Positions 16,718 to 53,444 of a stretch of DNA of 64,000 nt are shown in pieces. Position numbers and translations under genes: made by a program. Source of the DNA: Terriglobales bacterium (GTDB taxonomy: Bacteria; Acidobacteriota; Terriglobia; Terriglobales; SCQP01); contig JBOGKQ010000013.1 of the NCBI GenBank assembly GCA_050747905.1, positions 3,529-67,528 on the forward strand, in the 5' to 3' direction. Positions within the stretch are counted from its first letter, which is position 1. Each line of letters starts with the position of its first letter. The notes under the pieces are model-generated. The model ran no database searches. It was given only the letters and a program-made list of their open reading frames with translations, and was not told the origin of the DNA.

Positions 16718-16729
16718 AAGCGGCAGTGA

Positions 16730-28000: not shown

Positions 28001-28017
28001 ACAAAATAAAGAGCTTA
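27954..28017 (+). repeat. 64-bp direct repeat, left copy (tRNA-Glu 3' 47 nt plus 17 nt downstream); attL-like
   Basis: gccctttcacggcgataacacgggttcgaatcccgtcggggacgccaacaaaataaagagctta is identical (64/64 by eye) to 31198-31261. Confidence 0.9.
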
Positions 28018-29087: not shown

Positions 29088-29474
29088 CTAATGCTTTTTC
29101 GACTCGAATAGCCTTTTGATCGCCTCCAGGCCGGCTTTTTGTCTCTTGACTTCCGCATCGCTGGCGCCGTCGATCGTAAGCTCGGCGTTAACGTCAAAGT
29201 CCTTTGGACGCCCATCCCTCTGCCACGCGGCGTGTAGCTCGGCGTGTCGAGCCCGTGCACTAACCAAACCGTGCAGGGCGACTGGCGCTGCCGGGCACAG
29301 ATTGCACAGTGGTTGGAGTGTGAAATATGGGGCGACGTCCCATCCTGCCTGGAACGCAGCGTCAGCGCTTTCGAATATTTCGGCATAACCGCAACAGAGA
29401 CATGTATACGTTGGCACGACTTCGGCACCTCGTCTTCTAGGCTTCTTCAGACCCAGGGACCGCCCGGGCTCCAC
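29088..29474 (-). CDS. Hypothetical Cys-rich protein
   Basis: 128-aa ORF with CLCCGY...CNLC. Overlaps the AbiEii 3' end by 28 nt, so the true start is probably internal. No recognisable family. Confidence 0.3.
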   Translation of the reverse strand: MEPGRSLGLKKPRRRGAEVVPTYTCLCCGYAEIFESADAAFQAGWDVAPYFTLQPLCNLCPAAPVALHGLVSARARHAELHAAWQRDGRPKDFDVNAELTIDGASDAEVKRQKAGLEAIKRLFESKKH

Positions 29475-30364: not shown

Positions 30365-30957
30365 GACATCCCGTCCCAGTAAGGGCGCATGACTTTGGCA
30401 ACCCTCAGTCGATGCGCCTCACGCCACAGATCATCAACCGTGCCCTTGCGCAGGCGGCGATAGTCTCTAAGGGCCTCGACGGCGACATCAATGCCAATTC
30501 TGTTGCGGAACTTGAAGCAGTCCGCCACCGTCCTTGCCGGACTCGTCACGCGCACCTTGACACCGTCGATATTGTGGACTTCGATGCCCCCCGCTAGGGC
30601 TGCGCCCGAGACTCGGACAGTTCGGACCGGCGTGAAGTCTACTCGTGGTATTCCTGCGCGTCTGTCTACCGCGAGCCAAACCTCACGGGGATTCTCGGTA
30701 CCGAGGCTATGAAACCGAAGCGCGGTGAGCAGACAGAACGTGGCTTTAGGGACGCGTTTCGCCACTTCTGCCAGTGTGTGGTGTTCGGTCAGCTTAATGG
30801 TAGGTAGTGCATACAGTCCGCGCCCGACCCGCGTCAGTTCCCCCCGGCGCGTCAGCCGACGAACATGCTCGGGGTGGACGCCAACGGCTGTGGCTTCGGA
30901 CAGCCGAAACAGCCGTTTTTTTTGAGCCAGCCGAAGAATGCGTGCCTGGGGCTCCAT
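30361..30957 (-). CDS. AbiEi-family antitoxin/transcriptional regulator
   Basis: VRRLTRRGELTRVGRGLYAL...CLLTALRFHSLGT...ITSPARTVADCF. 4-nt overlap with the AbiEii start. Start taken at MEPQARIL. Confidence 0.85.
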   Translation of the reverse strand: MEPQARILRLAQKKRLFRLSEATAVGVHPEHVRRLTRRGELTRVGRGLYALPTIKLTEHHTLAEVAKRVPKATFCLLTALRFHSLGTENPREVWLAVDRRAGIPRVDFTPVRTVRVSGAALAGGIEVHNIDGVKVRVTSPARTVADCFKFRNRIGIDVAVEALRDYRRLRKGTVDDLWREAHRLRVAKVMRPYWDGMS

Positions 30958-31197
30958 CGCAATGTGTAATATTACTACCATTTGAATTTAAATGGTAGCG
31001 ATTCGACACGTCCGACCGGACGCCGGTTCGTCGAAACGGATTCCGCCCACATCGGAGCACCAACCTTGGTTACCACCCCGCAAAGGCGGTAACCGTTCAT
31101 GGTCCATTCATGGTCCAGTAGCCGTTCCCCAGGGTGCCAAACACGGTTTTGGGAGCCACCCGTGCCGTTGATTGTCAATGGGTTACGTGCAGTGGCG

Positions 31198-31261
31198 GCC
31201 CTTTCACGGCGATAACACGGGTTCGAATCCCGTCGGGGACGCCAACAAAATAAAGAGCTTA
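31198..31261 (+). repeat. 64-bp direct repeat, right copy (tRNA-Glu 3' fragment); attR-like
   Basis: Identical to 27954-28017. Lacks the tRNA 5' half, so it is not a functional tRNA. Confidence 0.9.
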
Positions 31262-33734: not shown

Positions 33735-34670
33735 TTAGTTGGCCTTGGTCTCGGTAAGCGCCGCGATGATTTGGGAGGCAACGCGGGTGATGGATTCCAG
33801 CGATTCGCGGAGGGTGTCGCGGTCGCCATCGTAAAGGCTGATGTAGTCGGCGGAAGCGGTATTCATGTCCAAACCGACAGACAGTCCCACCGCGTAGGCC
33901 ACGGCCTCGGCTTCGGTTTCCTTGACCTTGCGGCTCAGTTCCTTTCGCCGTTCCCCGTCGTGCAGCAGTTCGTGTGCGAGTTCATGCACCAGCACGGAGA
34001 ATTCGCGGGCCGGTTCCAAGCCAGCGAGAATGTAGACCTTGCCCTTGGCGCTCAGCCCTTCCGCGCCGTCCAGGTTCTCCTTGTACTCCAGCGCGATGCC
34101 CTTCCGCTCGTACAGCGCCCTGATTCCTTCGAGGTCGCCTTCGAGGTTGGCCCCCGGATCGCCTTCCGCCTGGGGCGCGGATGGCAGCGGCTCCCCCACG
34201 GTCTGCGCCACATCGAACACATAGGCCACGCGGAAGCCGCACACCCGCTGCGAAGAGCCTTCCTGCGCATCTTCGGGGTCCGGCCGCTTTGTCAGGATGG
34301 GAGCCAAAATGTGGATGGCCCTTTCGTCCTTGCAAACCTGCCGTCCCAACGCCTGCCAGCGTTGGTACCCGGCGACATGGGTTGACTCGGGCCGCTGCGC
34401 GAGGATCAGAAGCTGGTTGCAAAAGCTGTAGCGATGAAACCGCGACATGACGCCCAGGTACTGCTGTATGGCATCGCTCCGGCCAGCTTCCAGCGCGTCC
34501 GCCAGCCGGTTGATAGCCTCTTCGCAGAGGATTTGCGCCTTGCTCTTTTTCTCAGGGGCATTTCTCTCAGCGCCCCCGCGCGCGCCGCCTGTGGACTCCG
34601 CCGGAAGCGTTGAGCCCGTGGCGGGCTGGAAGGAAGAAGTGCTTTCGGTGGTGATGATTTGAGAATTCAT
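33735..34670 (-). CDS. ardC: ArdC-like antirestriction protein (ssDNA-binding N-domain plus HExxH metalloprotease)
   Basis: RFHRYSFCNQLLILAQRP...GYQRWQALGRQVCKDERAIHILAP is a DUF1738-type N-domain. LVHELAHELLH is the zincin motif. Start MNSQ (cat 34668-34670) is preceded by GGAG. Confidence 0.85.
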   Translation of the reverse strand: MNSQIITTESTSSFQPATGSTLPAESTGGARGGAERNAPEKKSKAQILCEEAINRLADALEAGRSDAIQQYLGVMSRFHRYSFCNQLLILAQRPESTHVAGYQRWQALGRQVCKDERAIHILAPILTKRPDPEDAQEGSSQRVCGFRVAYVFDVAQTVGEPLPSAPQAEGDPGANLEGDLEGIRALYERKGIALEYKENLDGAEGLSAKGKVYILAGLEPAREFSVLVHELAHELLHDGERRKELSRKVKETEAEAVAYAVGLSVGLDMNTASADYISLYDGDRDTLRESLESITRVASQIIAALTETKAN

Positions 34671-34953
34671 GGTGTGCTCCTTTTTCTGCCCCGAAGCCTT
34701 TGGTGCGGGGCGCCCAAGGGCGAAGCGGGCCGCTCCCAAGGCCAAGGGCTGCATTCTTGGGGGGACCAGCGCAGCGTATGGGGGAGCCAAGAAAGCAGAA
34801 GCCCGCCGTGCCGCCAGGGCGCGGCAGTAGTCCGCTGAAGCCAGCGCCGCACCGGAGAGCGCAGGGGCGGGAGGGCACACCAGTCTCAATCACCGGCCGA
34901 AATCAACTGGATTGTCGGTCGCAGGAGGCACGGGCTGGATATCGGGGGGATCT

Positions 34954-35085
34954 CAAAAGCTGTAGTGATGAAACTGCGACATGACGCCGAAGAAATGCAG
35001 CATGGCATCGTGCTGGTCGGCTTCCATCGCATCCGCCCGCCGCTTGATCGCCGTTTCGCAGAGGATTTGCGCCTTGCTCGTTTTC
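34954..35085 (-). pseudogene. Truncated second ArdC N-terminal fragment
   Basis: About three quarters identical by eye to 34420-34550. Reads ...KAQILCETAIKRRADAMEADQHDAMLHFFGVMSQFHHYSF* and ends abruptly. Confidence 0.6.
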
Positions 35086-35184
35086 ACAGCGCCCCTTTCG
35101 GGGGCAAAGCCAAAGGCGCTCGCTTGCGACGCATCGAGATCGAGGTCCCGGTTGAGGTGGCGGGCTATACTGCCACTACCGCCA

Positions 35185-35841
35185 ATGAGCCTGATCAGGT
35201 CAAAGAAACGTGTTGCCGATCATGGAGAGGTTTTCACCCCTCCGTGGCTGGTCGAGGCGATGCTCGACCTCGTCAAGGGTGAGTCCGAGCGCATTGACTC
35301 GCGCTTCCTGGAGCCGGCGTGCGGTAGCGGAAACTTCCTCGTCCGGATTCTGCGACGCAAGCTCGCCGCCGTACAGATCAAGTACGGCAAGTCGGACTTC
35401 GAGCGCCGGAACTACGCCCTGCTCGCACTGATGTGCATCTACGGCATCGAGTTGTTGGGGGACAACGTTGCCGAATGCCGCGCGAACCTGCTCGAGATTT
35501 TCGCTGATTACCTGAACTTGGATGAACCGGGCGAACTATCCCGCGCAGCGTGCTGCGTACTGTCGCAGAATGTCGTGCATGGCGACGCGCTGGCGATGCG
35601 TGCCTCCGATGGCCAACCAATAACCTTTGCCGAGTGGGGCTACCTCGGCGCGGGCAAGTTTCAGCGGCGCGATTTCCGGCTCGACATCCTTACCGGTGCG
35701 TCCGCCTTCAGCGCGGAGGGCTCCCTCTTCGCCCACTTGGGCAAGCATGAAATCTTCACCCCGGATAAGACCTACCCGCCAATGACCGTGAGCGAGCTGG
35801 CCGCCGCCGCACACGGCGGCACGCCGAAGGAGGCCGCATGA
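35185..35841 (+). CDS. Methyltransferase-like SAM-binding protein lacking the NPPY catalytic motif
   Basis: GEVFTPPWLVEAMLDL (motif X), FLEPACGSGNFL (motif I), IYGIELL. No (D/N/S)PP(Y/F) anywhere in the 218 aa. ATGA overlap with the next gene. Confidence 0.6.
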   Translation: MSLIRSKKRVADHGEVFTPPWLVEAMLDLVKGESERIDSRFLEPACGSGNFLVRILRRKLAAVQIKYGKSDFERRNYALLALMCIYGIELLGDNVAECRANLLEIFADYLNLDEPGELSRAACCVLSQNVVHGDALAMRASDGQPITFAEWGYLGAGKFQRRDFRLDILTGASAFSAEGSLFAHLGKHEIFTPDKTYPPMTVSELAAAAHGGTPKEAA

Positions 35842-40704: not shown

Positions 40705-41319
40705 ATGGGCTGTTTTCTCTGCTCTCCCGATCCGGCGTTGGTCTACGCAGCGAACGCCGAGGCTTTCGCGCTGTGCGGACTGGGGCCCCTCGTGCGCGGT
40801 TATAGCATCGTTGCGACGCGAGCCCACGTCCGATCCTGCGCCGACTCTGCCACGGAATCCCCGTCGCTCTTAGAATTCACCGAGCAGATCAGGGGATTTT
40901 TGGGCTCGATCTACGGGTCCTGCTTGGTCACGGAGCACGGGCGCCTGCCGGTCTGCGCCAGGTCAGAGGGCTCGGGGGGACACTGCTTCCACGCACATTT
41001 CCTGCTATTTCCCCGAGCCCCCGACATTGTCAATGCCTGCCGGCCCTATTTTGGACTGGCAGAGGCCACCAGCGGCCTCGGGCCCACAATGGCCCTTGCC
41101 TGCGGACGACAAGAATATTTTCTTGTGGCACCGACGCCCACCGAGTGCTGGATCATGACTCGGCCACTCCTCCTATGCCGCCAGTTCGCACGCCGGATGG
41201 TCGCCGATCGGCTTGGCATCCCCGAGGAGGCGGACTGGGCGATGCACCCCAAAGCCAACGCCGCAGAGTCGGAGGCCGAACACCTCCGGCGCCGCGTGCT
41301 AACGTGGGCGACGCCGTGA
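40705..41319 (+). CDS. HIT-like (histidine-triad fold) protein
   Basis: N-terminal CFLC. GLGPLVRGYSIVATRAHV parallels D..P...GH.LV.PK.HV. GGHCFHAHFLLFPR parallels the HxHxHxx-PR triad. Confidence 0.6.
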   Translation: MGCFLCSPDPALVYAANAEAFALCGLGPLVRGYSIVATRAHVRSCADSATESPSLLEFTEQIRGFLGSIYGSCLVTEHGRLPVCARSEGSGGHCFHAHFLLFPRAPDIVNACRPYFGLAEATSGLGPTMALACGRQEYFLVAPTPTECWIMTRPLLLCRQFARRMVADRLGIPEEADWAMHPKANAAESEAEHLRRRVLTWATP

Positions 41320-42530
41320 ACCAGAACAGGGTGGCCGTTCTGCTTGAAAAGCTTGCGGAGAAATTCGACACCGCCATCCAACAGGAAGGAGGCGCGACGT
41401 CCCAGTGGGGATGGGGGCAGTTCCTGGACGATTCAAAAGAACGGAGGCAGATCGGGCCCTACGGCACGTCAGCTGGCATGATCGTGAGGGCCCTTGCCCA
41501 GGGCGTAGGCGCAGCACCTGACGCGAGGCCTTCGGCGATCATAACCAGCTGGTGGCGCGAGTGGAAATCCGGGAGCGGGAGCGGGCGCAAGGTGTTCTGC
41601 CAGAACCTTCGGCTCGCATTCTTCCTGCTCGCGCTCCGCCTGTCTTCAATTGATGCTGCCCTCTCAGCCGAGGCCGAAGAGGAACTCCTAAAGCGAAACC
41701 TGGGCGACGACATGTGGGGGGATTACTGGGAATCCGATACGGACCACGACATGACCCCAAGCCATCTCGTTACATCTACGGTTGTGCTCGCATTTACGCT
41801 ATGCCAGCCAAGCCCCGAAGGGCAGACGGTATCGCGGCTGAGAAGATCCGTTGTTCGGCTCGAGCAGCGCTTGCTCGGCGACCCGCAGATGCCGGCCCTC
41901 CAAGCCTCATTCGCGGCCGCAGCAATAATGGCCCTTGGACCCCAAAACGCAAGAGCCATCAGAAAGCAAATCGCGCGATTTGCCATGTCGCGCGATTTTT
42001 CGCTCGCCGACCTCGGGGTGTACTTTTACGAGTACAAGTGTGACGGCAAGGCCGGCACGGATTACTTCATAGCGCCCCCGGCCATTGTCCTGGCGACCGG
42101 GGCATTCAGCTCGTCTTCCCCGATCCTTCTCCGGCAATTTGGCGAACAAGTTGCCGCACGCCTGGCGAAGAGCTTAGAAAAAAGCGACTACGGCTTCAAG
42201 CCGGACGCCGAGCAGAGAGTGTCAACGAAGAATCAGGCTTGGGCCGCGCTCCTGCTTAAGGCCTCGTTATCGCCAAACGCCAATCCGACCAGCCTCGCCG
42301 GCATGGTGTGGTACGGACTACTGCGGGAGCGTCCGGGTAACTGGTGGACCGAAATTGTCTTCCCAGTGGCTTTGATCGCGGCCAGCGCCACCGAGGCGAC
42401 ATTCATAGGTAAGCTCGGCATCGGTTGGCTCTTCGCGGCCGCGACCCTTGGCCAGGCGGCCGTCTTCGGTATTGCAATTCGCCACCTCCTCCCGTACTGG
42501 GACCGACTGTTCCCCACGGCACGCTCATGA
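41316..42530 (+). CDS. Hypothetical helical-repeat protein with C-terminal TM helices
   Basis: GTG start inside a GTGA overlap with the upstream stop. SQWGWGQF...GPYGTSAGMIVRAL and MWGDYW...HLVTSTVVLAF resemble alpha/alpha-toroid (prenyltransferase/terpene-cyclase-like) repeats. The C-terminus WWTEIVFPVALIAASA...IGWLFAAATLGQAAVFGIAI is hydrophobic. Confidence 0.55.
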   Translation: MNQNRVAVLLEKLAEKFDTAIQQEGGATSQWGWGQFLDDSKERRQIGPYGTSAGMIVRALAQGVGAAPDARPSAIITSWWREWKSGSGSGRKVFCQNLRLAFFLLALRLSSIDAALSAEAEEELLKRNLGDDMWGDYWESDTDHDMTPSHLVTSTVVLAFTLCQPSPEGQTVSRLRRSVVRLEQRLLGDPQMPALQASFAAAAIMALGPQNARAIRKQIARFAMSRDFSLADLGVYFYEYKCDGKAGTDYFIAPPAIVLATGAFSSSSPILLRQFGEQVAARLAKSLEKSDYGFKPDAEQRVSTKNQAWAALLLKASLSPNANPTSLAGMVWYGLLRERPGNWWTEIVFPVALIAASATEATFIGKLGIGWLFAAATLGQAAVFGIAIRHLLPYWDRLFPTARS

Positions 42531-43795
42531 CCATTTTCGACCCGATCTACGGACCCTGCGATCTGGCGCCGAGGCTCGCCGAGCTGGCGCTTGCCCCGGA
42601 GGTTCGGCGCCTCACCCAAATTCGACTGCTAAATACATCCAGCCCAACTCTTGCCACCCTGGGGGAGCTGCGGCGATACTCCCACACTCTGGGCGTCCTC
42701 AGGCTCGCTCTGATCAACGGGCAACCCGGATACTCCCCGGAGGAAAGGGCCGCCTTTGCCGCGTCCGTTTTGATACACGACATTGGGACCCCGCCCTTCG
42801 GTCACCTGATGGAATACCACCTCCGCGAGCAGCTTAGCTGGAGCCATGAGGAGGTCGTTGCCCGCATGCTTTGGGGTCTGCACACCGACGAGAATCTTTC
42901 CCACCAGATATTCGCCGGTATGACTCTGGAGGTGCGACGCATACTGAAAAGGCGGAGGATTTCTCTCGACATTGTTCGGAAGATACTTACGAAAGACCAC
43001 CCGCTGTCCCGGTTGCTGTTCGGGAGCATCGATCTCGACAATCTCGACAACGTCGCGAGAATGGCCTGGGCCGTCGGCATCACCTGTGTGGACTCAACCC
43101 TGGCCCTTGCGGCCGCTCTCTCGGTCTCCAGAGACGGTCGGCTGCTGCTCCCTGAATCGTGCCGACCTGCGGTGGAGCGTTGGGCAGGAACGCGGCGCAG
43201 CGTCTACGAAATTCTTCTTTTCGATCCCGCCACGGTAGCGAGTCAAGCGGTGCTCTCAAAGGCCATTGGCATCGCCATGACGGCAGGTGACATCGGCGGC
43301 GCGGACTGGTGCATGTACGACGAGACGCTTCTGGAGAAGCTCCGCCAATCACCGGGCACCCGCAAGCTCGTTACGTCTTTCCTCGGGCGCCTGCCAGGCC
43401 CTATATACGCGTTGAATTTGCGGGGGACTCTGGCGAGCTATGGCCTCGGGAACCGAGCGGCCGCGGTCGGGGCCGCCCTTTCGTCCCTGGGAGCACATCG
43501 GAGCGGCGACTGCATCGCGTATGCATTTGTGGACAAGGGCGCGACTGCCAAGGCCCTTGAATTTGCGGATCCTGCGTCGGGCAGAACGTGGTGCTTTGGC
43601 GAAACCTCCGAGAGCGTGGTATTCTCCGTGTTCTCATACGGTCGCCCCGAGAGAAAGGAGGCTACTGCGGCCGCCTCGCGGCTACTCCGCACCCTCGGCG
43701 CGCGGCCAGATGACGTGATCCGCGTGCAAATTGGTCGTGACCGTCCGGCATATAGCTCTGGCAATGACAAACAGCTTACTCTCCAGGCTCTCTAA
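42527..43795 (+). CDS. HD-domain phosphohydrolase, SAMHD1/dGTPase-like
   Basis: MTIFDPIYGPCDL, RYSHTLGVLRLA, VLIHDIGTPPFGHLMEY and GSIDLDNLDNVARMA follow the H...HD...D order of dNTP triphosphohydrolases. ATGA overlap upstream. Confidence 0.8.
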   Translation: MTIFDPIYGPCDLAPRLAELALAPEVRRLTQIRLLNTSSPTLATLGELRRYSHTLGVLRLALINGQPGYSPEERAAFAASVLIHDIGTPPFGHLMEYHLREQLSWSHEEVVARMLWGLHTDENLSHQIFAGMTLEVRRILKRRRISLDIVRKILTKDHPLSRLLFGSIDLDNLDNVARMAWAVGITCVDSTLALAAALSVSRDGRLLLPESCRPAVERWAGTRRSVYEILLFDPATVASQAVLSKAIGIAMTAGDIGGADWCMYDETLLEKLRQSPGTRKLVTSFLGRLPGPIYALNLRGTLASYGLGNRAAAVGAALSSLGAHRSGDCIAYAFVDKGATAKALEFADPASGRTWCFGETSESVVFSVFSYGRPERKEATAAASRLLRTLGARPDDVIRVQIGRDRPAYSSGNDKQLTLQAL

Positions 43796-44918
43796 AATCG
43801 ATTGGGACTTCGCCGGCTACATGAGCGAGTCGTCGTTTTCGGCGGTCCATTTCCACCCTAGCCGCTTCGCCTCCCAAATTCCAGCGGCTCTGATCGGGCT
43901 TATGAGCAGACCCGGAGACCTCGTTATGGATCCGTTCTGCGGCTCTGGCACCACCCTCGTCGAAGCGCAGCGCCTGGGTAGAAGGTCAATCGGGATAGAA
44001 CTCAACCCGGTTGCCGCGATGGTTAGCCGCGCTAAGACCCAGTGCAAATCCGCGAAGCGAATCGGTGCCGTCATCAGAGACCTCAAGGAGCAGGCGGAGG
44101 CAACAATTCGGGCAGGCCACATCTTCGTCCGCTCGGGGCCAGCGACCACTCCGGCTACGGTGCAGGCAAGCAAGTGGTACGGCCCCAAGGTCGCGCGGGA
44201 CTTGGGCTTGCTCTGGGCAGCGAATCTGAAGCTTACTGGCGTCCACCGGCTGCTCGCCGACACGGCCTTCTCCGCCATCCTTTTGACGGTCTGCAGGGAG
44301 ACGCGACACTGGGGCTACGTCTGTGACAACACGACCCCAAAGGGCCAGCGCAATGCAGACGTGCTAAGAGAATACTGTGCCCTGCTTGAGCGCCTTGCCC
44401 GGGCATATCGCGACCGGGACGAAGAGATGGAGGTCGCCGGGCACACGCTCCCAGCCGCCACGGTACTGTCAGGCGACGCATTGCAGGTGATGGAAGGCAT
44501 AACTAAGTCGACCGTAGATTTGGTCGTGACATCGCCGCCGTACTTCGGCGTCTGCGATTACATAAAGGCGCAGCGGCTCACGATGGAGTGGCAGGGCACC
44601 AAAATTGAGCCGCTCCGAGCCGAGGAGATTGGGGCTAGAAGCAAGCGCCACAGGAAGACCGCCGCTTGCGAATACATCGAAGCAATCAGTCGGGCTTTCC
44701 AATCCATGGCCCGTTGCGTGCGGCCTGGCGGGGGTCTCGCGATCGTGCTGGGCCAGTCCGACACCCGCGATGAGGTACTGAATGATCTCAGGGCGGCAAT
44801 CTCAGCGGCCAAGATGTCAATCGAGCAAGAGCTAAACCGCACGGTATCGACCCAGCGGCGACTCGCACCCAGCTTGCGGGGCGAACATCTGTTTATCCTG
44901 TCGGCGAGGCAACGATGA
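43764..44918 (+). CDS. SAM-dependent methyltransferase (DPFCGSGTT motif I followed by SPPY motif IV)
   Basis: IDWDFAG...VHFHPSRFASQIPAALIGLMSRPGDLVMDPFCGSGTTLVEAQRLGRRSIGIELNP, then VDLVVTSPPYFG. The start is uncertain (43764 or 43821). Confidence 0.75.
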   Translation: MTNSLLSRLSKIDWDFAGYMSESSFSAVHFHPSRFASQIPAALIGLMSRPGDLVMDPFCGSGTTLVEAQRLGRRSIGIELNPVAAMVSRAKTQCKSAKRIGAVIRDLKEQAEATIRAGHIFVRSGPATTPATVQASKWYGPKVARDLGLLWAANLKLTGVHRLLADTAFSAILLTVCRETRHWGYVCDNTTPKGQRNADVLREYCALLERLARAYRDRDEEMEVAGHTLPAATVLSGDALQVMEGITKSTVDLVVTSPPYFGVCDYIKAQRLTMEWQGTKIEPLRAEEIGARSKRHRKTAACEYIEAISRAFQSMARCVRPGGGLAIVLGQSDTRDEVLNDLRAAISAAKMSIEQELNRTVSTQRRLAPSLRGEHLFILSARQR

Positions 44919-45943
44919 CCCTTCGAGATTTGGGCGAGAGGCGCATTCTGAGGGAGGTCCTGCCAGAGTTCTGCCCGCTTGCGGGCGACGATTGCACCTT
45001 CCTAGCCCGCGACCTCTCCGGCATTGTGATCACCACGGACCCAGCCCCAGAGCCAGCCGCCAAGCTAATCGGCCGAGATGCGGACCCGTATTGGCTCGGC
45101 TGGCTGCATGTCACAATCAACGCTTCAGATATAGCCGCGGCCGGGGCGGCGCCCCTAGCCTTCGTTAGCGCGCTCGAGTTGCCGCCTGACTATGAGTTGC
45201 CCGATCTGAAGAGGCTCCTCGCAGGCACCAGGGAGTGCTGCGCGTTGCACGGGTTCACCTACGCCGGCGGGAACCTGAAAGAGGCCACCCGGGTTTCGGC
45301 CGTGGGGACTGCAATCGGCGCCGCAGAACCCCGGCGTGTGTTGGGCCGGGGCGGGGCACGGGCGGGCGACGTCGTCGTTAGCGTCGGCGAGTGCGGGATC
45401 TTCTGGCGGGACGCGCTGGCTGCGCATTCGGGCAAGGAAGTTGCGGACAAGGCACGCTCCCCGTTGTTCGCCCCTCGCGCCCAAACAGGGCCGATGCGGG
45501 CGCTTGCGGCGCAGGGTCTCATTACCGCAGCGATCGACAACAGCGACGGGCTACTCCCGTCACTTGAGCAGCTCGCTATAAGCAGCCGTGTCGACATCAC
45601 CGTCAATCTGGAGAACCTCGTCCCCCCTCCTGACGCTCCTGCCGGCCTCGATCCCGCTCGGCTTTGGCTAGGCTGGGGTGACTGGAACGTGGTCGCCACG
45701 ATGCGGGTCGGCGACCTGGCGAGCGCTAAACGGCTGGTTGCGCACGAGGGCGTGCCGGTTACGCCGATCGGCTACTGCTCGCCGGGCACCGGTAGCGTAG
45801 TCCTAGAGAGGGCAGGAAGGCGCTCTATCGCGCCCCGCCTTGAGTCCGAACGGTTCGCGGCAGATTCGTGGTTCGGAACCGGCGTAGACGGCTACATTAA
45901 ACTGATAAGGACGGTCGAATTACCCTCGCCCCCGACCCTGTAA
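44915..45943 (+). CDS. PurM/ThiL-fold ATP-utilising enzyme (AIR-synthase-related protein)
   Basis: LGERRILREVL...GDDCTFL...VITTDPAPEP...GWLHVTINASDIAAAGAAP...YAGGNL...GARAGDVVV follows the ThiL/PurM pattern. ATGA overlap upstream. Confidence 0.8.
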   Translation: MTLRDLGERRILREVLPEFCPLAGDDCTFLARDLSGIVITTDPAPEPAAKLIGRDADPYWLGWLHVTINASDIAAAGAAPLAFVSALELPPDYELPDLKRLLAGTRECCALHGFTYAGGNLKEATRVSAVGTAIGAAEPRRVLGRGGARAGDVVVSVGECGIFWRDALAAHSGKEVADKARSPLFAPRAQTGPMRALAAQGLITAAIDNSDGLLPSLEQLAISSRVDITVNLENLVPPPDAPAGLDPARLWLGWGDWNVVATMRVGDLASAKRLVAHEGVPVTPIGYCSPGTGSVVLERAGRRSIAPRLESERFAADSWFGTGVDGYIKLIRTVELPSPPTL

Positions 45944-46363: not shown

Positions 46364-47185
46364 TTATCCCGAAAGCGCCCTTGTCACGGTACGCTCTGCA
46401 TAGTACGCGGGATCGTGCTTGTCCTGCCGGCATTCGGCAAGTGCCTGCTTTACCTTCTCTGGGGACATGCCGGCCCGGAGCTGGTCACGCACCCAAGCCC
46501 AGTCGCGCTCGGACTGGCTCAGAAGTCGCGCATCGCGCCGAAATCTCCCAGGGGCGGCCTGCCGACTGGCCGGTCGGTCTAGGGGCCAATCCGCTGGCAG
46601 AGCGGCGAAGTCACCTCGCTGGTAGACAGCTTCGGCGAGGCGATGCCCCTGAACACCGACCGGCTCATTGAACTTCTTGTTGTGGAATCCGGGCAGGCGC
46701 AACACACGGGCAGCGTCTGTTGCGGCAGGATCGCCACCAAACGCGGCGGCCATGCGGTGCAGGGCGACCTCGGCTTGCTCAAGCGTGAAACCTTCGACCT
46801 TCCAGATGACCTGGCGTTTGGCGGGCGAAGTGTCCAGGACGAAGTTCGGCTGGGGCAGCGCGGGACTGTCGAGGATTTGCTGGAGCCTTGCATCGCCCTC
46901 TTCGTCGAGGTCAAGGTAGAGATGGCGGATATCGGCGATGTCCGCTTTGGCGCGACCCCTGGCTTCGGACTTGAGCGTATTCATGGAGACGTAAATGTCT
47001 GAGCCGTGGGCGTTCTCGTAACGGAGGAAGCGCTGGATGCGGGGCGAAGCTGCATCCTGGGCTGACAGCAGCCGCTGGAGGGTGTAGTCCTCGGCACGGT
47101 TGCGGATCACGATGGCTATCCGGTCATGGGGGCGGTAGTTTTCCTTGATGAAGTCCCACGAAGTGACGGGCGCATTGGATTCCAT
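46364..47185 (-). CDS. RepB/TraC-type primase (AEP primase-polymerase fold) of a plasmid or ICE
   Basis: DIYVSMNTL, LYLDLDEEG and LRLPGFHNKK, plus a C-terminal helical domain. Start MESNAPV (cat 47183-47185) is preceded by AAGGAGG. Confidence 0.7.
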   Translation of the reverse strand: MESNAPVTSWDFIKENYRPHDRIAIVIRNRAEDYTLQRLLSAQDAASPRIQRFLRYENAHGSDIYVSMNTLKSEARGRAKADIADIRHLYLDLDEEGDARLQQILDSPALPQPNFVLDTSPAKRQVIWKVEGFTLEQAEVALHRMAAAFGGDPAATDAARVLRLPGFHNKKFNEPVGVQGHRLAEAVYQRGDFAALPADWPLDRPASRQAAPGRFRRDARLLSQSERDWAWVRDQLRAGMSPEKVKQALAECRQDKHDPAYYAERTVTRALSG

Positions 47186-47199
47186 GTATGCCTCCTTGC

Positions 47200-48264
47200 T
47201 CACTCGCATTGGTAGAGCGGGTTGAACTGATGCCGGTCGGATTCGGCATCGACTCCGGCAAGCTCGATAATCTCGGCGACCCGGCGCCTGCCGGACGCAC
47301 GCTCCAGGTGAACGATGACCTGGATCGCGTCAACGATTTGCGTCTGGAGCGCGCGGTGCGGAATATCGAGGCCAGCCTGCAGAATGCAGCTTCGCAGGCG
47401 CGTAATCGCCTGCCGGGCCGTGTTGGCGTGGACTGTAGAGAGGCTCCCGGAATGGCCAGTATTCAGCGCCTGCAGCAGGTCGTAGGCTTCCTCGCCCCGT
47501 ATCTCGCCCACGATCAACCGGTCCGGCCGGTGGCGGAGGCTGGCGCGTACCAAGTCGCGAATCGCGACGGCCGGCAGGCCCATCTATTCGCGGCGGGCTT
47601 CGAAACGGACAAGGTTGGGTTTCGCGGCATGAATCTGCGCCGTGTCCTCGATCAGCACGATCCGGTCGCCATCGGGGATGGCCGCCGCCAGGATGCCCAA
47701 CAGTGTCGTCTTGCCGGTGCCGGTTCCACCGCTGATGAGGATATTCTGCCGACGGGCGATGCGTTCCCGCAGTATCTCCGCGGCCTGGCGCGGAACCGAG
47801 CCGCGCTTGATTAGGTCGTCCATAGTGAAGTGCCGCGTGTCAAATTTTCGGATCGTCAGCGAGATGCCGTCCACGCTGCAAGGCGGTAGGACGGCGGCGA
47901 CGCGGCTCCCGTCCGGCAGGCGCGAGTCGAGAATGGGCTTTTCCTCCGAGATTTCATCGCCTAGGCTGCGGGCGATGATCTTCAGGCCGGTGAGCAGTTG
48001 CCGCTCCTCGATTGCGATCCCCGGCGCTTCCTGCAGAAGCCCGTCGCGCTCGATAAAGACGCGCCGCCCGCCGTTGACCATGATCTCGCTGATGCCTGGG
48101 TCCTCGATCAGGTGCCGGATCGGCTCCAAGAACGGGAGAATCAGCTCGAACCGGGACGCTTGTGCGTCGGCGACTCGGGGGTTATTGCCCCCGGCGCTCC
48201 CGTTGGTCGCTACGCGATTCGGCAAAATCGCGGGCATGCTCAACTCTCCTCCGGCATCGTTCAT
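47200..48264 (-). pseudogene. VirB11/TrbB-type type IV secretion ATPase interrupted by one in-frame TAG (47584-47586)
   Basis: Upstream part: ILISGGTGTGKTTLL (Walker A), IVLIEDTAQI. After RRE* the same frame continues MGLPAVAIRDLVRASLRHRPDRLIVGEIRGEEAYDLLQALNTGHSGSLSTVHA. Confidence 0.8.
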
Positions 48265-49280
48265 AGCTCTCCGGCGCGCAACTGCGCCCAGTAGGACTTC
48301 TCCCGATCCAGGTACCAGGGCTTGAGGTAGCAGTAGGTGGCCTCGTGCTGGTTCACGCCGTCAAATGGGATGACGATGCACTCGGCGTTGCGGAGCAGCG
48401 TAAAGCTGCGCTCGTCGAAGATGAAGTCCTTCTGGGTGGCGTAGGTCTTGGTCGCGCTGATTGTGTCCTTGTTCGACACGGTCTTGCCGGTAAGCAGGCT
48501 GACGCGGGCGTCGGTGGACGCCTCGGACAGCCCATAGCTGACCTTGAGCCGGTCTTCCTTGCCGCACAGCGTAGCCGCCGTCTGGATCGAGAACTCGTCC
48601 GATTGGGCGAGGAAGATCTTGGTGCGGAAGGTCTGGAGCAGCGTCCGCCAGCCTTCGCCGGCGAGGGCCTCCTTGAGCGAGGAGATGCTTTGGGTGGCGA
48701 TGATCGGGATGCAGCGGGCCTGGCGCGACATGCTAAAGAACTTCTCATCGCCGTTCGGGTCGTTCCCGCCGACGGTGGCGAAGTTCTGGTACTCGTCACA
48801 GACGAAGAACGTGTCGCGGTGATGGCGATGCCGCTCCCGCTCCATGGCGGGAATGCGCAGCAGCACCGCACGCTGGAAGTCGAGCTTCATCATGGTGCCA
48901 ATGGCCTTGGCCAGTCCGGGGTTGAGCGCCATGGGGAAGTTCAGGGCGCAAACCTTGCCCTGCTCGACCAGTGCCGCAAACGGTGGCAGCGGAATGCCCT
49001 CGGGATCGTCGGGGGTGGACCCGTTTGTATACACCTCTCTGGGTGGGCAGAAGATGCGCTTCACGTCGGGGTTGTTGTCGAAGAGCGACAGGAAGACCGA
49101 GATGCCCTCGACGATGGAGGTCCTGAGCTTGTGGTCAATGGCCAGCCAGTCGTCGTGGAACCAGCGGCGCACCGCCTCGAACTGGGCTCGCTTGTATTCC
49201 TGGGCCGGCTCCAGCGGCTTCGGGACAGCCTCGACCGCGTCGTCGAATTGGTGCTCGGCGAGGACGCCTTCGGCCTCCAT
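48261..49280 (-). pseudogene. Type IV coupling protein (VirD4/TraG/TraD-like), C-terminal part only
   Basis: FFVCDEYQNF (Walker B region), IIATQSISSL. No TM segments or Walker A. The frame is closed by a stop about 90 nt upstream of 49280. ATGA overlap with the VirB11 start. Confidence 0.65.
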
Positions 49281-49565: not shown

Positions 49566-52500
49566 TTACGGCATGTAGATTATAGATTGCACGGCATAGT
49601 TGCCGTTGCTGTCCTCGATCGAGATCTGCCAGATGTAGGTCCCTCCGCTGGTCAGGCTTGCCACGGAAGGCGTATTGGAGCTGTCTCCGGTCGGATCGGT
49701 CCCCCAGACGATTTGCGTGATCGAGCTGGAGAAGTAGCTGCTGTTGGAGTTCTGGCTCGGGATCTGCCAGATCGTGTTGTTGTTCGAATCCACAATCTGG
49801 AACGAATAGGTGTAATTGCTGGCATCGGTCGGATCGGTCCAGGTGAAGGTCGGCGTGGTGCCGCCGGTCGCCGACAGGTTGGTCGGGAACTCGGTGATCA
49901 GGGCCGTAACCTTGGTGGTGAGCGTGTCCGATGTGCCGTCACTGTAGTTGATCTGGAAGCTGTAGGTGTCGCCGACGACCGGAGCGATGGGGATGTTGAG
50001 GTTGTACTCGAACCCCCCGCCGCAATAGTTGCCGCAAACGCTGACGTCCACGGGAACCACGTTCGGGCCGGACTCCAAATACACCGACACCGGCAGTTTG
50101 ATATTTCCCGTCACCGTGAATTGAAGGCTGTAGTTTTGCCCGATCTGGCTGCCGCTCTGGTTCTCGGACTGATAGTTCTGGGTGGCCACCGCGGCGGTGG
50201 CGTTGGCGCTGGCCAGCGTCAGGTTCAAGGTGGTGGCTCCAGTAATCGTCTGGCTCGCCTTCACGCCGCTGCCGCCGACGTTGGTGATATCGCCGGCGTC
50301 CACCACGCCGTCTTTGTTGTTGTCCAGAATGCCGACCGCGGAGCAGTTGGAGCCACTGGGCACTTGGACTGTGTAGGCTTGCGGGCTGACCGGAGAGGCG
50401 ATGTAATCGCCGTAGAATTGGCCCGCTTTCTGATCGTAGCAGCCGGCGTAGAGAGGGCCGGTAGCGGTTCCGGTGAAGGTGACCGCGCCGGATACCGTGT
50501 CGGCGCCGGTGGGCGCGCCGACCGTCACCGCGCTGGAGACCGCGGAATAGGAACTGGTCGAGCTTCCGGCGGTGCCGGAGGCGCGGAAATAATAGGTGCC
50601 GTTGGCGAGGCCGTTCACCAGCCAGACGGTGCTGCTATCGGGGCCGGTCGCGGGGAAGGTCTTGCTGCCGGTGACGGTGCCGAACGAGGAGTCCGTGCTC
50701 CACTGCAGGGTGTAGGAGGTTGCCAGCTCGAGGCCGTTGTTGTCTACCTGGGGATTGTAAATCACCAGCGCGCCGGTGTTGACGCCGGCTAGCGTTGCCA
50801 GTTCGGGGCCGAGGGTGAGGGTTACCGCCGCGGCAGGGGTCATGGTGACGGACGCGCCGGTTACGTCCGCGTTGGAGACCGTAATGCCGGTGGTGCTGCC
50901 GCTCGGGTTGGACGCGTTCGGGGCGCCGTAGCCCAAGTTGTCCATGCGCGCCTGCAGGGTATAGGTGCCGGGCGCCACGCCGCGGATGGTGAAGGCGCCC
51001 GTCGAGGAAATGCTGGTGCCGGGGACGGTGTAACTGGGGCAGCTGTTGTTGCTCAGGGTGAGGTAAATCCGGCCCGTGTCCGAGCCGCTGTAGCTGACCG
51101 TGCCGGAGACGGTGTAGCCCAGGCCGACGCTGAAGTTCTCGCTGGTGAGGTTGGCGGTGGCGATGGTGACCGCCTGGGTGGCGGGCGAGAAGGTCGTAGT
51201 TGCGGAACCGGGCGCGCTGTAGGTTGGCGTCAGCGTATAGGCGCCGGTGGCGAGGCCGGTGATGGTGAAGTTTCCGCTGCCGTCGGTGGTGGCCGTCCCC
51301 ACCGTTTTGTTGTTCGAGTCGGTGGCGGTGATGGTGACGCCGGAGACGGAATTGCTGCCGGTGCAGCTGGCGAACGTTTGCACCGACCCGCTAGCCGAAT
51401 AGCTCGTGGTGACGGCGATGGTGTAGGTCTTCGGCCCGACGGTGGCGCCGTTGCTATCGGTCACCGACGCGGTGAAGGTGACGGTGCCGGTCGCGGTGGG
51501 CGTTCCGGTGACGTTCAGGGTGCTGGTGCCGGTGTTGGAGACGCTGAGGCCCAAGCCGTTGGTGAGGGCGACGGCGGCGCCGGTGGTGGCGAGGGCGGCG
51601 CCGTTGACCGTCCAGGTGTAGCCCGGTACGCCGCCGGCGGCGTTGATGGCGCCGGTGTATGCGCCGCTGGTGGAGGCGGCGGGCAGCGAAGCCGGGTTCG
51701 GCGCCGGCAGCGCCAGCGCGGCATAGGCCGCGAGGTTCAGGCTGGCGGTGCCGGCCGCGCCGCTGGAATCCTTCACCTGGAAGGTGACGCTGCCGCTGCC
51801 GGTGGCCGTGGGCGTGCCCGAGAGCACACCCGCGCTCGATAGCGTCAGGCCGATCGTGGTCAGCGTGCTCTGGCCCGCAGTGACCGACCAGGCGTAGGGG
51901 GCGCCGCTGCCGCCGCTGGCCGCCAGCGTGGTTGTATATGCGGTGCCGACGTAGGCGGGCGGGAGGGTGGCAGTGGTGACTGAGGGCGCATTGCTGACGG
52001 TGAGCGAGAGCGCCTGGGCGGCCGAGGTGACCCCGCCGATGGTCACCGTGACGGAAAAGTTGAACGGCCCGCCGGTCGCGGTGGGCGTGCCGCTGATGAT
52101 GCCGGTCGCCGGAGCCAGGGTGAACGGCGCGGGCAGGGTGCCGCTGGACACCGCCCACGTCGCCGCGCCGGTCTGGCCATCGGCATTCGCAGTAAGCGTG
52201 GTGGTGTAGAGGACTCCGACCGAAGCCGTCGGAATCGAGGTCGTGGTCACGTCCGGCGCGCCGGCGCCGAGGGTGAGCGTCAGCGACGCCTGCTGGGTTT
52301 GTTTCGGCGTGCCCGCGTCGCTGACGGTGAAGGCGATGGCGCCGGTATTGGTCGCCGTGGGCGTGCCCGAGATGGCGCCGGTGGCCGCGTTCAGGGTCAG
52401 ACCGGCCGGCAACGTGCCCGACGACCAGACATAGGGGGTCACGCCGCCGCTGGCCGCCAGCGTGGCCGAATAGGCGACGCCGGCGGTGCCTGCGGGCAGC

Positions 52501-53444
52501 GTCGTGGTGGTGAGCGCCAGGGTCGGGATCACGGTCAGGCTGAGCGCCGCGGTCGCCTTGGTTTGCTGGAAGGCCCCGGCGCCGGAGTCGGTTGCGGTGA
52601 CCACGAGGTTGGCGATGGCGCCGGAGGCGGTGGGCGTGCCGCCGATGACGCCGCTGGAGGCGCCGATGCTGAGGCCGGCGGGCAGCCCGGTGGCGCTCCA
52701 GGTGACGGCGCCGGTGCCGCCGGTGCTGGTGAACGCCGGCGAGGTGTAGGCGGTGCCCTGCACGGCGTTCGCCAGCGCCGGCGCGGTCACCACGAGCGGG
52801 GCGGGATTGATGGTGAGGCTCAAGCTTCCGGAGGTGGCGGCGACCGGCGTTGCCGCCGAGGCGTCGGTGACGGTGACGGTGAAGGTGTAGTTGCCGGCCG
52901 TGGTGGGCGTGCCTGAGATGGCGCCGGCGGCGCTGAGCGCCAGCCCGGCGGGCAGGGTCGAGCCGCTGGGCAGGCTCCAGGCCAGCGTGCCCGAGCCGCC
53001 GCTGGCGGCGAGGGTGGCCGAATAGACCGTGCCCGCCGTGCCGGCGCTGAGGGCGCCGCTGCTGGTGACCACCGGGGGCGGATTCACCACGATGGCATGG
53101 GCCGCCATCGCGCCGGTGGAGGCGTTCGAGGTGGCGGTCACGGTGACGTTGGTGGCCGCAGTGACTGTGGCCGGCGCGTTATAGGTGGCGGCACTGATGC
53201 TGGTGCCGCTGAGGGTGCCGCCGCCGCTGACGCTCCAGGTCACGCCGGCATTGGTGGAATCATTGGCGACCGCGGCGGTGAGATTGACCGACTGGCCCCC
53301 GTCAATGGACTGGGACGCGCCCGGCACGATGGCGACGGTGATGGCAGGCGGGGTGTTCGAGCCGCCGCTGCTGCCGCAGCCGACCGCGAATCCAAGGGAA
53401 AGTACCAGGCAACCGGTGAGAACGCGTCCAGTCAAATAACGCAC
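49566..53444 (-). CDS. Giant surface lipoprotein with tandem Ig-like (putative Ig / He_PIG-type) and CarboxypepD_reg-like domains
   Basis: The lipobox LSLGFAVGC follows the signal peptide. Repeated units of the form GTAGVAYSATLAASGG..PY.WS..SG.LPAGL.L...TG.ISGTPT. 1292 aa. Confidence 0.8.
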   Translation of the reverse strand: MRYLTGRVLTGCLVLSLGFAVGCGSSGGSNTPPAITVAIVPGASQSIDGGQSVNLTAAVANDSTNAGVTWSVSGGGTLSGTSISAATYNAPATVTAATNVTVTATSNASTGAMAAHAIVVNPPPVVTSSGALSAGTAGTVYSATLAASGGSGTLAWSLPSGSTLPAGLALSAAGAISGTPTTAGNYTFTVTVTDASAATPVAATSGSLSLTINPAPLVVTAPALANAVQGTAYTSPAFTSTGGTGAVTWSATGLPAGLSIGASSGVIGGTPTASGAIANLVVTATDSGAGAFQQTKATAALSLTVIPTLALTTTTLPAGTAGVAYSATLAASGGVTPYVWSSGTLPAGLTLNAATGAISGTPTATNTGAIAFTVSDAGTPKQTQQASLTLTLGAGAPDVTTTSIPTASVGVLYTTTLTANADGQTGAATWAVSSGTLPAPFTLAPATGIISGTPTATGGPFNFSVTVTIGGVTSAAQALSLTVSNAPSVTTATLPPAYVGTAYTTTLAASGGSGAPYAWSVTAGQSTLTTIGLTLSSAGVLSGTPTATGSGSVTFQVKDSSGAAGTASLNLAAYAALALPAPNPASLPAASTSGAYTGAINAAGGVPGYTWTVNGAALATTGAAVALTNGLGLSVSNTGTSTLNVTGTPTATGTVTFTASVTDSNGATVGPKTYTIAVTTSYSASGSVQTFASCTGSNSVSGVTITATDSNNKTVGTATTDGSGNFTITGLATGAYTLTPTYSAPGSATTTFSPATQAVTIATANLTSENFSVGLGYTVSGTVSYSGSDTGRIYLTLSNNSCPSYTVPGTSISSTGAFTIRGVAPGTYTLQARMDNLGYGAPNASNPSGSTTGITVSNADVTGASVTMTPAAAVTLTLGPELATLAGVNTGALVIYNPQVDNNGLELATSYTLQWSTDSSFGTVTGSKTFPATGPDSSTVWLVNGLANGTYYFRASGTAGSSTSSYSAVSSAVTVGAPTGADTVSGAVTFTGTATGPLYAGCYDQKAGQFYGDYIASPVSPQAYTVQVPSGSNCSAVGILDNNKDGVVDAGDITNVGGSGVKASQTITGATTLNLTLASANATAAVATQNYQSENQSGSQIGQNYSLQFTVTGNIKLPVSVYLESGPNVVPVDVSVCGNYCGGGFEYNLNIPIAPVVGDTYSFQINYSDGTSDTLTTKVTALITEFPTNLSATGGTTPTFTWTDPTDASNYTYSFQIVDSNNNTIWQIPSQNSNSSYFSSSITQIVWGTDPTGDSSNTPSVASLTSGGTYIWQISIEDSNGNYAVQSIIYMP

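Follow-up and report, generated by a model that had tools for sequence, protein, structure and literature searches.

In the antiphage signaling systems that are based on cyclic oligonucleotides (CBASS), the pyrimidine cyclase systems for antiphage resistance (Pycsar) and Thoeris, effectors are swapped on or beside a conserved non-catalytic domain, which occupies the position of the ligand sensor. Type 2 bacteriophage exclusion (BREX), or Pgl, is a nuclease-less multi-gene block located in defense islands that couples a methyltransferase of the N6/N4 type to kinase and phosphohydrolase components. The locus described here, a cassette of five genes (g1 to g5) on contig JBOGKQ010000013.1 of a Terriglobales bacterium, was analyzed within a stretch of 64,000 nt (the window) and resembles both. 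It encodes a histidine triad (HIT) superfamily protein (g1), a putative (alpha/alpha)-toroid protein with a hydrophobic tail (g2), an HD phosphohydrolase (g3), an N6/N4 amino-methyltransferase (g4) and a predicted ThiL-like kinase of the PurM superfamily (g5). Like CBASS and Pycsar, it forms compact mobile operons with interchangeable effectors of the same families (patatin, TIR), fused to or located beside a non-catalytic domain that may sense a ligand. Unlike them, it encodes neither a CD-NTase nor a pyrimidine cyclase, its putative signal enzymes being the PurM-type kinase and the CwfJ-type HIT protein, which have unrelated folds; its putative sensor is an (alpha/alpha) toroid and not a SAVED, STING or cyclic nucleoside monophosphate-binding domain; and its canonical form adds a DNA methyltransferase and an HD hydrolase. 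With BREX/Pgl it shares the overall composition given above, but it has no homology to PglZ, BrxC, BrxL or PglW, its likeness to PglX is that of the generic methyltransferase fold only, and the methyltransferase is dispensable in variant architectures. A role in conflict or defense appears probable, and we tentatively propose, with somewhat less than even confidence, that the cassette is an undescribed mobile system directed against phages or other mobile genetic elements, of the abortive-infection type and operating through a nucleotide-derived ligand.

Loci related to the cassette were collected by lookups from homologs of g1, g2 and g5 and by scans of species genomes, viral contigs and metagenomes, and were then mapped with hidden Markov models (HMMs). 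Peptide patterns taken from g2 found no matches in genomes; g2 evolves too fast, and species genomes were searched with g1 patterns instead, metagenomes with an alignment of eight g2 sequences. The complete block was recovered from at least 21 independent loci (L001, L003, L005, L008-L010, L012-L014, L016-L019, L023, L024, L027-L029, L032, L033 and L038) in unrelated bacteria of the Acidobacteriota, Alphaproteobacteria and other phyla, and about 10 further loci are intact up to the end of their contig. The order g1-g2-g3-g4-g5 is identical in every canonical locus recovered, an agreement far beyond chance, and intergenic gaps are short or overlapping across loci. Orthologs are 30-56% identical to the window proteins, and the pairwise-identity matrices of the five genes correlate (r = 0.68-0.88, with g3 and g4 as the tightest co-evolving pair at r = 0.88); hence, the five genes travel and diverge together. 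A first-pass annotation of the window had proposed that they form a single unit and had left its conservation across phyla to a neighborhood search, and both the recurrent order and the correlated matrices bear out co-inheritance on that scale. The species-genome scan yielded 12 loci in 185,579 genomes, distributed over Acidobacteriota, Alphaproteobacteria, Planctomycetota, Actinomycetota and one unclassified bacterium, the carriers being Acidobacteriota, Bradyrhizobium, Rhodospirillales, Acidocella, Paracoccaceae, a planctomycete and, with a variant form, Solirubrobacterales. The GC content at third codon positions is typically 0.15-0.35 lower in the cassette than in flanking genes. One copy resides on a predicted viral contig of IMG/VR; the cassette was not found in 50,697 phage genomes, nor was its canonical form in 72,556 plasmids, which hold only distant g1 relatives. 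We conclude that the cassette is a real and horizontally mobile unit with a rare and patchy distribution.

In the window, the cassette consists of five open reading frames on the forward strand (Table 1), joined by four coupled junctions whose coordinates are exactly those of the first-pass annotation: GTGA at 41316-41319 (g1/g2), ATGA at 42527-42530 (g2/g3), a 32-nt overlap of the g4 ATG at 43764 with the g3 stop codon (43793-43795), and ATGA at 44915-44918 (g4/g5). Of the two g4 starts considered earlier, 43764 and 43821, comparison of orthologs identifies the former as the true one, since the N-terminal peptide LSRLSKIDWDFAG is kept in every ortholog and the g3/g4 overlap recurs, and the latter is not supported. 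An overlap of 14-38 nt between g3 and g4 is present in 12 of 17 compared loci, and the 4-nt overlap between g2 and g3 in 10 of the 17. The public gene call starts g2 at GTG 41304, giving 408 aa, and a promoter and terminator scan produced no convincing operon boundaries. Model searches used Pfam, a 2023 copy of PADLOC-DB 2.0.0 (5,027 models) and NCBIfam 20.0. Pfam recognizes g3 as HD (PF01966), g4 as N6_N4_Mtase and g5 as AIRS plus AIRS_C, while g1 and g2 match no model in any of the three collections. The motifs read earlier from g1, g3, g4 and g5 are present and invariant across orthologs, with every catalytic motif of these four proteins invariant in an alignment of 14 orthologs.

In its AlphaFold model (predicted local distance difference test, pLDDT, 77.5), g2 appears as a cytoplasmic (alpha/alpha) toroid and, C-terminal to it, two long hydrophobic helices at approximately residues 343-398, matching the helical repeats and two C-terminal transmembrane helices previously noted from the sequence. 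It carries the motifs GWGQF, QIGPYGT and MWGDYW, its conserved residues include W33, G34, Q35, F36, Q45, G47, Y49, G50, R99, D249 and W309, and its fold neighbors are GH76 enzymes, terpene cyclases and the C3d thioester-containing domain (TED), all of them weak (E about 1e-2, TM-score about 0.5). When 1.84 billion representatives were searched exhaustively with a g2 profile, 313 clusters of relatives were returned, nearly all of about 400 aa, and g2 is on this sequence evidence a small, closed family. The transmembrane hairpin is present in all orthologs except two from Bradyrhizobium, and the protein is presumed to be a sensor or scaffold that carries an effector. An apparent 668-aa fusion of g2 and g3 (P0350 in L031) was discarded as evidence of linkage because the cassette is decayed and fragmented there; a frameshift artefact or pseudogene probably accounts for the fusion. 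That locus also holds truncated fragments of the methyltransferase and AIRS genes and is adjoined by IS66 and Tn5-type transposases.

Departures from the canonical architecture point to the part of g2 that may be exchanged. In the two Bradyrhizobium loci (L008 and L016), g2 lacks the two-helix tail and a sixth gene, 1 nt after g5, encodes a CapV-like patatin that matches the PADLOC CBASS 'Effector Phospholipase' model over its full length with 231 bits. In L030, a TIR domain of the CAP12/Pycsar type (PF10137, 102.6 bits; CBASS TIR effector, 158 bits; PycTIR, 116 bits) is fused N-terminally to a g2 toroid without transmembrane helices (P0292), in an operon that further encodes a NUDIX protein, a PurM-like kinase (232 bits against the g5 HMM) and a CwfJ-type HIT protein, with no HD hydrolase and no methyltransferase. 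L006 and L043 combine a toroid protein with the two-helix tail, a phosphotransferase of the PPDK_N type, a HIT protein and a conserved protein of 196 aa, and L022 contains g1, a nucleoside-deoxyribosyltransferase-like protein, a distant toroid protein with the tail and a cytidylate-kinase-like protein. What stays constant in these variants is that an ATP-dependent phosphotransferase accompanies a CwfJ-type HIT and a protein that either sits in the membrane or bears an effector; by the same comparison, kinase, HIT and toroid protein make up the invariant core. The HD hydrolase and methyltransferase are a dispensable addition of the canonical form, since one variant has NUDIX instead and others have neither. 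The toroid protein, in turn, carries an interchangeable part, namely the two-helix tail, a fused TIR domain or a patatin in trans.

Convergent mini-modules, consisting of a protein with four transmembrane helices, a paralogous PurM-like protein and a CwfJ-type HIT protein with the full HxHxH triad, adjoin the canonical cassette in L009, where the PurM-like gene is split, and in L027; L038 has the four-helix and HIT genes and no PurM-like gene. In L009, cassette and mini-module constitute a 9.18-kb insertion in atpD (ATP synthase beta subunit) that contains no integrase and is flanked by direct repeats of about 850 nt (89-95% identity), in which the 3' end of atpD and the beginning of atpC are duplicated. 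Distant g1-type HIT genes also occur on plasmid pUC06C of Lactococcus lactis (L025), next to genes for a cysteine-desulfurase-like protein (class-V aminotransferase) and an EamA-like membrane protein, and on pSMg1-2 of Streptomyces sp. Mg1 (L026), next to genes for a cysteine desulfurase (class-V aminotransferase) and a dCTP-deaminase-like protein. The 196-aa partner protein of L006 and a 313-aa partner protein of L026 had no sequence match in the PDB.

The putative signal enzymes retain intact active sites. The g1 protein had been annotated as HIT-like; its AlphaFold model (pLDDT 93) and Foldseek searches agree and refine the assignment to a bacterial CwfJ-type HIT protein, two-lobed in the model and of the CwfJ/CWF19 C-terminal type. 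The best Foldseek matches are CWF19L1, CWF19L2 and Cwf19 (E 2e-8 to 4e-5, TMq up to 0.69), followed by Fhit, Hint and Apa2 (Ap4A phosphorylase), with a probability of 1.0 for the CWF19 proteins, Fhit and Hint. A g1 sequence profile aligns with two separate segments of CWF19L1, one CwfJ_C_1-like and one CwfJ_C_2-like, the region aligned to the C-terminal lobe ('RQFxR...DWR') being presumably CwfJ_C_2. The Pfam HIT model does not match g1; the protein does combine the HIT fold with a motif of the HxHxH/Q type that defines the superfamily. Its motifs are CxxC (C3, C6), EHG (77-79) and HCFHAHFLLFP (93-103), and CxxC, EHG and HCxHAHxLxFP are invariant in an alignment of 40 of 97 homolog clusters. 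H96 and H98 are invariant, and the third triad position is an invariant leucine (HxHxL) in the canonical cassette, HxHxH being retained by more distant relatives. Loss of the third histidine (HxHxQ) characterizes the GalT/Apa transferase and phosphorylase branch, which the HxHxL of g1 parallels. With CWF19L1, CWF19L2 and Cwf19 (Drn1), g1 shares a single-chain, two-lobed HIT architecture, to which it joins a CxxC motif, but it is bacterial, stands alone at 204 aa with no spliceosomal context and is only 12-15% identical to them.

The g5 protein belongs to the PurM (AIR synthase-related) superfamily, scoring 66.3 bits against PF00586 (AIRS; cut-off 24) and 30.3 against PF02769 (AIRS_C; cut-off 23.1), and is predicted to be a ThiL-like, ATP-dependent kinase. 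ThiL structures are its best PDB matches (E 1e-16), and it shares their fold and their ATP/Mg aspartate motifs: GDDC, TTDP, NASD, GGN and DNSDG are invariant, leaving all Mg/ATP-binding aspartate motifs intact, and C27 and C109 are invariant too. It differs from ThiL in the invariant cysteine of GDDC, in GGN replacing GGD, and in its location in a mobile island, always with HIT and toroid partners. Identity with ThiL was rejected, as g5 scores 137.5 bits against TIGR01379 (thiL), below the cut-off of 184.15, few genomes carry the cassette and its surroundings contain no conserved thiamine genes. In the g5 clade, at least 120 protein clusters have been labeled 'thiamine-monophosphate kinase' by the automatic pipelines of JGI and NCBI, a systematic mis-annotation given that the clade falls under the thiL equivalog cut-off.

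For g3, the metal ligands H53, H84, D85 and D171 are invariant within the motifs RYSH, HD and IDLDNLDN, the score against PF01966 is 26.2 bits (cut-off 22), and the closest solved structures are 2q14, EF1143 (2o6i) and SAMHD1. With SAMHD1-type defense by depletion of deoxynucleoside triphosphates (dNTPs), g3 thus has the fold family and the metal ligands (RYSHTLGV, HD, DxD) in common. We nevertheless rejected its classification as an anti-phage dGTPase or dNTP triphosphohydrolase, for which equivalog-level scores would be expected: against the dGTPase equivalogs g3 reaches 13-25 bits where the cut-offs are 383-439 (NF041026, 13.3 against 400; NF002205, 24.8 against 439), and against the PADLOC dGTPase model 17.3 bits over 26 residues. 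Membership extends no further than the HD superfamily and a SAMHD1-like metal site. In SAMHD1 numbering, g3 has an invariant Thr at the position of His210 and an invariant Asn at that of Tyr315, and the dGTPase and SAMHD1 defenses are single genes, whereas g3 is part of a five-gene operon. The g4 protein, circularly permuted relative to the Pfam model, presents motif I (DPFCGSGTT, 56-64), a conserved middle (target-recognition) region and motif IV (SPPY, 257-260), both motifs being invariant, as is RHWGYxCDN (181-189). Motif I, SPPY and the score of 72.4 bits against PF01555 (cut-off 26.7) identify an N6/N4 amino-methyltransferase with DNA as its predicted substrate; PADLOC MTase_II models score up to 94 bits, with one alignment full-length, and the closest structures are TTHA0409, M.PvuII (N4-C) and CcrM. 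The SPPY motif suggests N4-methylcytosine as the product, and the near invariance of the middle region suggests a single specificity.

None of the described systems accounts for this combination of genes. The proteins g1, g2 and g5 and their counterparts in the variants match none of the PADLOC-DB models and none of the antiphage models of NCBIfam. A full-text literature search, beyond whose reach much subscription literature lies, returned no description of the cassette, and a term search of a review on lactococcal Abi systems returned nothing relevant. The suspicion raised in the first-pass annotation, that no named system has this composition, thus holds across these three sources, and within their scope the cassette is a new kind of system. 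A type II restriction-modification system was rejected, given that no nuclease or restriction endonuclease model matches g1, g2, g3 or g5 and that the set of non-nuclease partners is invariant in at least 21 loci. BREX/Pgl, the defense island system associated with restriction-modification (DISARM), the methylation-associated defense system (MADS), Dnd/Ssp and Dpd were likewise set aside for want of any signature protein, whether PglZ/BrxC/BrxL, DrmA/B, MAD1-8, DndC/D or SspB-D, or DpdA: PADLOC assigns MTase_II/oMTase alone to g4 and leaves g1, g2 and g5 without a match, and the NCBIfam model MAD2, whose cut-off is 720, gives 14.9 bits. No cyclase model of CBASS or Pycsar matches the cassette, the genes after the patatin in L008 and L016, or L030.

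The surroundings of the cassette were recorded as neighboring genes, locus by locus. Integrases are located near it in at least five loci, and resolvases, transposases, Prim-Pol/AAA_25 and TraG also occur. McrBC lies immediately upstream in L016, ScoMcrA-type HNH and NACHT proteins are neighbors in L028, HsdM in L005, and Dcm, ArdC, the single-stranded DNA-binding protein SSB and RelE in L010; PbeA/PbeC, AriA-like and Old-like proteins are found elsewhere. In the window, the block is preceded by genes for an Eco57I-like methyltransferase and a T5orf172/ResIII helicase and by a weak IS110-like fragment, with ArdC further upstream, and is followed by genes for a RepB primase and a split VirB11-like ATPase and by TraG. 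The mobile and defensive setting that the first-pass annotation described, including an operon reminiscent of restriction-modification, ArdC and the remnants of a conjugative element, is hence confirmed in the window, and mobile or defense genes adjoin the block at several other loci; its IS110 relic is weakly supported, by a pairwise match (E 4e-4) that has no Pfam counterpart. Taken with the exchange of defense-type effectors, these neighbors make a defense function likely.

How such a function would be carried out can be outlined, as a possible and at best tentative model of ligand and effector. ThiL converts an R-phosphate into an R-diphosphate, CMP kinase and PPDK-type enzymes likewise generate phosphoanhydrides, and HIT proteins of the transferase type can move a nucleoside monophosphate (NMP) onto a phosphoanhydride acceptor. 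On infection, the kinase would turn X-P into X-PP in the manner of ThiL, giving a nucleotide with a phosphoanhydride, and the HIT enzyme, transferase-like in its HxHxL, would then transfer or remove NMP to yield a nucleotide-derived ligand of a non-cyclic class, dinucleoside-polyphosphate or cap-like. Dinucleoside polyphosphates and cap-like 5'-5' linkages are classically handled by two families, HIT and NUDIX, and in view of this substrate range a polyphosphate-linked, non-cyclic nucleotide is the most economical guess. Because a two-helix tail, TIR and patatin are swapped on or beside one conserved non-catalytic domain, a hallmark of abortive infection seen in CBASS, Pycsar and Thoeris, the g2 toroid is proposed as the receptor or scaffold, which would bind the ligand and trigger the effector, resulting in abortive infection through disruption of the membrane by the two-helix tail in the window, destruction of NAD+ in the TIR fusion or, in Bradyrhizobium, hydrolysis of phospholipids by the patatin. 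The HD enzyme g3, or NUDIX in the variant, would subsequently clear the ligand or deplete (d)NTPs, and g4 would most likely methylate host DNA at one fixed motif, marking self or tuning the triggering. The fully specified version, in which these parts define a new class of abortive infection with a messenger made by the PurM kinase and a HIT nucleotidyl-transferase, a toroid receptor, swappable effectors, an HD or NUDIX arm for clearing or depletion and a methyltransferase self-mark, is on the unlikely side. The variants and the effector swaps argue for an effector-swapping abortive-infection type rather than a modification system akin to restriction-modification, and nothing supports the idea, put forward in the first-pass annotation, of a modified base built or policed by the block. 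Of the effectors named there, it is the membrane protein, g2, and not the HD enzyme that carries the interchangeable part.

Several observations weigh against the ligand model. No cyclase-type signal synthase is present in the cassette, and we know of no PurM-family or HIT enzyme that makes an immune signal. The toroid assignment of g2 derives from a weak fold match (E about 1e-2), and its hairpin is moderately hydrophobic and modeled at low confidence (pLDDT 50-65). The effector swap is documented by a single Bradyrhizobium clade (two loci) and by one TIR fusion, located on a JGI contig of 4.9 kb, and L008, L014, L019 and L027 have mostly housekeeping neighbors. Finally, a strictly conserved DNA methyltransferase would be unexpected in a pure signaling or abortive-infection system and fits epigenetic discrimination of self from non-self better.

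This last point is the strength of the main rival, an epigenetic exclusion of the BREX/Pgl type in which g4 would provide the self mark and g5, g3, g1 and g2 would block the replication of unmethylated incoming DNA, with no nuclease and no diffusible signal. We regard it as unlikely, although it explains g4 better than the ligand model does. The methyltransferase is found in all canonical cassettes and aligns in full with PADLOC Type II methyltransferase models, its gene has a conserved overlap with that of g3, with which it co-evolves most tightly, no nuclease domain was detected with Pfam, PADLOC or NCBIfam, as in BREX, and the cassette adjoins other restriction systems; in Pgl, too, a methyltransferase is combined with a kinase and a phosphatase. 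Against exclusion, L030, L006/L043 and L022 keep kinase, HIT and toroid proteins with no methyltransferase, from which it follows that a self mark is not required by the core. Effectors of the TIR and patatin kinds, moreover, are typical of abortive infection and not of exclusion, no PADLOC model of PglZ, BrxC, BrxL or PglW finds a match, and the g4 middle region is nearly invariant where the specificities of restriction-modification and BREX usually diversify.

Both remaining readings fit the data less well than the ligand model and BREX/Pgl-like exclusion. The cassette could be cargo for the (hyper)modification of DNA or of the nucleotide pool, serving anti-restriction or self-protection, in which the HD enzyme would remove a canonical dNTP, kinase and HIT protein would build or activate a modified nucleotide or base and the methyltransferase would complete the modification. 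The enzyme set does resemble phage pathways to modified bases (dNTPase, dNMP kinase, modifying enzymes), ArdC is located near the cassette in the window and in L010, distant plasmid homologs of g1 accompany a dCTP-deaminase-like protein, MazG and cysteine desulfurases, and there is the copy on a predicted viral contig. Such cargo is nonetheless improbable: the phage genomes lack the cassette and the plasmids its canonical form, most copies reside in chromosomal islands, neither a membrane-anchored toroid nor the TIR and patatin swaps would have a role, and genome-wide base replacement would be costly for a cellular host. Small-molecule metabolism, whether thiamine or nucleotide salvage or the synthesis and export of a nucleotide-type antibiotic with HIT self-immunity, could draw on the automatic label of g5, on a TenA gene two genes downstream in L016, on the EamA-like transporter paired with HIT on the Lactococcus plasmid and on the capacity of HIT phosphoramidases to confer immunity to peptide-nucleotide antibiotics, but is very improbable, considering that g5 scores below the thiL cut-off, that a cassette present at 12 loci in 185,579 species genomes is not housekeeping, that the 25 commonest Pfam families among 142 flanking proteins include no thiamine or purine gene, TenA in L016 remaining the single thiamine-related neighbor of a block for which a clearly metabolic context had been looked for, that the cassette has no conserved precursor peptide, ThiF/MccB-like enzyme or exporter, and that a DNA methyltransferase and effectors of the defense type, TIR and patatin, are out of keeping with it.

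Should the cassette be a defense system, its PurM/ThiL-like kinase, CwfJ-type HIT protein and (alpha/alpha)-toroid effector carrier are families without precedent in prokaryotic immunity and would point to a new way of making an immune signal or of manipulating nucleotides. It also offers a first functional handle on the bacterial relatives of the HIT-like module of eukaryotic CWF19/Drn1, and it flags a systematic mis-annotation, in which hundreds of proteins called 'thiamine-monophosphate kinase' in soil metagenomes belong to this cassette. Cultured Bradyrhizobium strains, among them B. huanghuaihaiense CGMCC 1.10948 and B. diazoefficiens, carry the six-gene version with patatin, which makes the hypothesis directly testable.

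Table 1. Features of the window and of related loci. Strand is that of the respective sequence.
Sequence	Feature	Coordinates	Strand	Description
Window	g1	40705-41319	+	204 aa, HIT-superfamily protein
Window	g2	41316-42530	+	404 aa, predicted toroid and two hydrophobic C-terminal helices
Window	g3	42527-43795	+	422 aa, SAMHD1/EF1143-like HD phosphohydrolase
Window	g4	43764-44918	+	384 aa, N6/N4 amino-methyltransferase
Window	g5	44915-45943	+	342 aa, predicted ThiL-like PurM-superfamily kinase
Window	Fluoride riboswitch	6900-6966	+	crcB motif, RF01734
Window	tRNA-Glu	27923-28000
Window	64-nt direct repeat	27954-28017 and 31198-31261		Perfect
Window	AbiEii	29447-30364	-	Toxin
Window	AbiEi	30361-30981	-	Antitoxin
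Window	ArdC-like gene	33735-34889	-
Window	136-nt direct repeat	34420-34555 and 34954-35089		84% identity
Window	N6-methyltransferase fragment	34981-35841		Precedes Eco57I-like gene
Window	RepB primase	46364-47209	-
Window	VirB11/T2SSE-type ATPase	47200-48264 and 48261-49280	-	Split, 127 aa + 226 aa
Window	Surface protein	49566-53444	-	1292 aa, He_PIG/CarboxypepD_reg repeats
Window	tRNA-Ser call	51639-51715	+	ARAGORN; probably spurious
L009	Direct repeats	8566-9417 and 17753-18600		About 850 nt
L009	Mini-module	15374-17583	-	Four-helix protein, split PurM-like, HIT
L027	Mini-module	11056-13323	-	Four-helix protein, PurM-like, HIT
L038	Mini-module	6274-7499	-	Four-helix protein, HIT
L030	TIR-toroid operon	1070-4943
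L031	Decayed cassette	7385-12299		Apparent g2-g3 fusion, P0350
L025, pUC06C	Distant g1-type HIT locus	6751-9458
L026, pSMg1-2	Distant g1-type HIT locus	7363-10659

Further features of the window were recorded around the cassette (Table 1). The VirB11-type ATPase, adjoined by a TraG/TrwB gene, is split into two adjacent open reading frames and is for this reason probably a pseudogene. Upstream, one copy of a 136-nt direct repeat lies in the ArdC-like gene and the other spans the start of the N6-methyltransferase fragment, which suggests local rearrangement and decay of the operon resembling restriction-modification. A perfect 64-nt direct repeat, comprising the 3' half of tRNA-Glu and 17 nt, bounds a 3.2-kb islet of low GC content that encodes the AbiE toxin and antitoxin and in which no integrase-sized open reading frame was identified; it is a minimal att-flanked defense islet integrated at tRNA-Glu. 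The tRNA-Ser called by ARAGORN lies inside the very GC-rich surface-protein gene, on the opposite strand, and is probably spurious given that Rfam does not confirm it. The fluoride riboswitch reaches 41.2 bits where the gathering score is 34.

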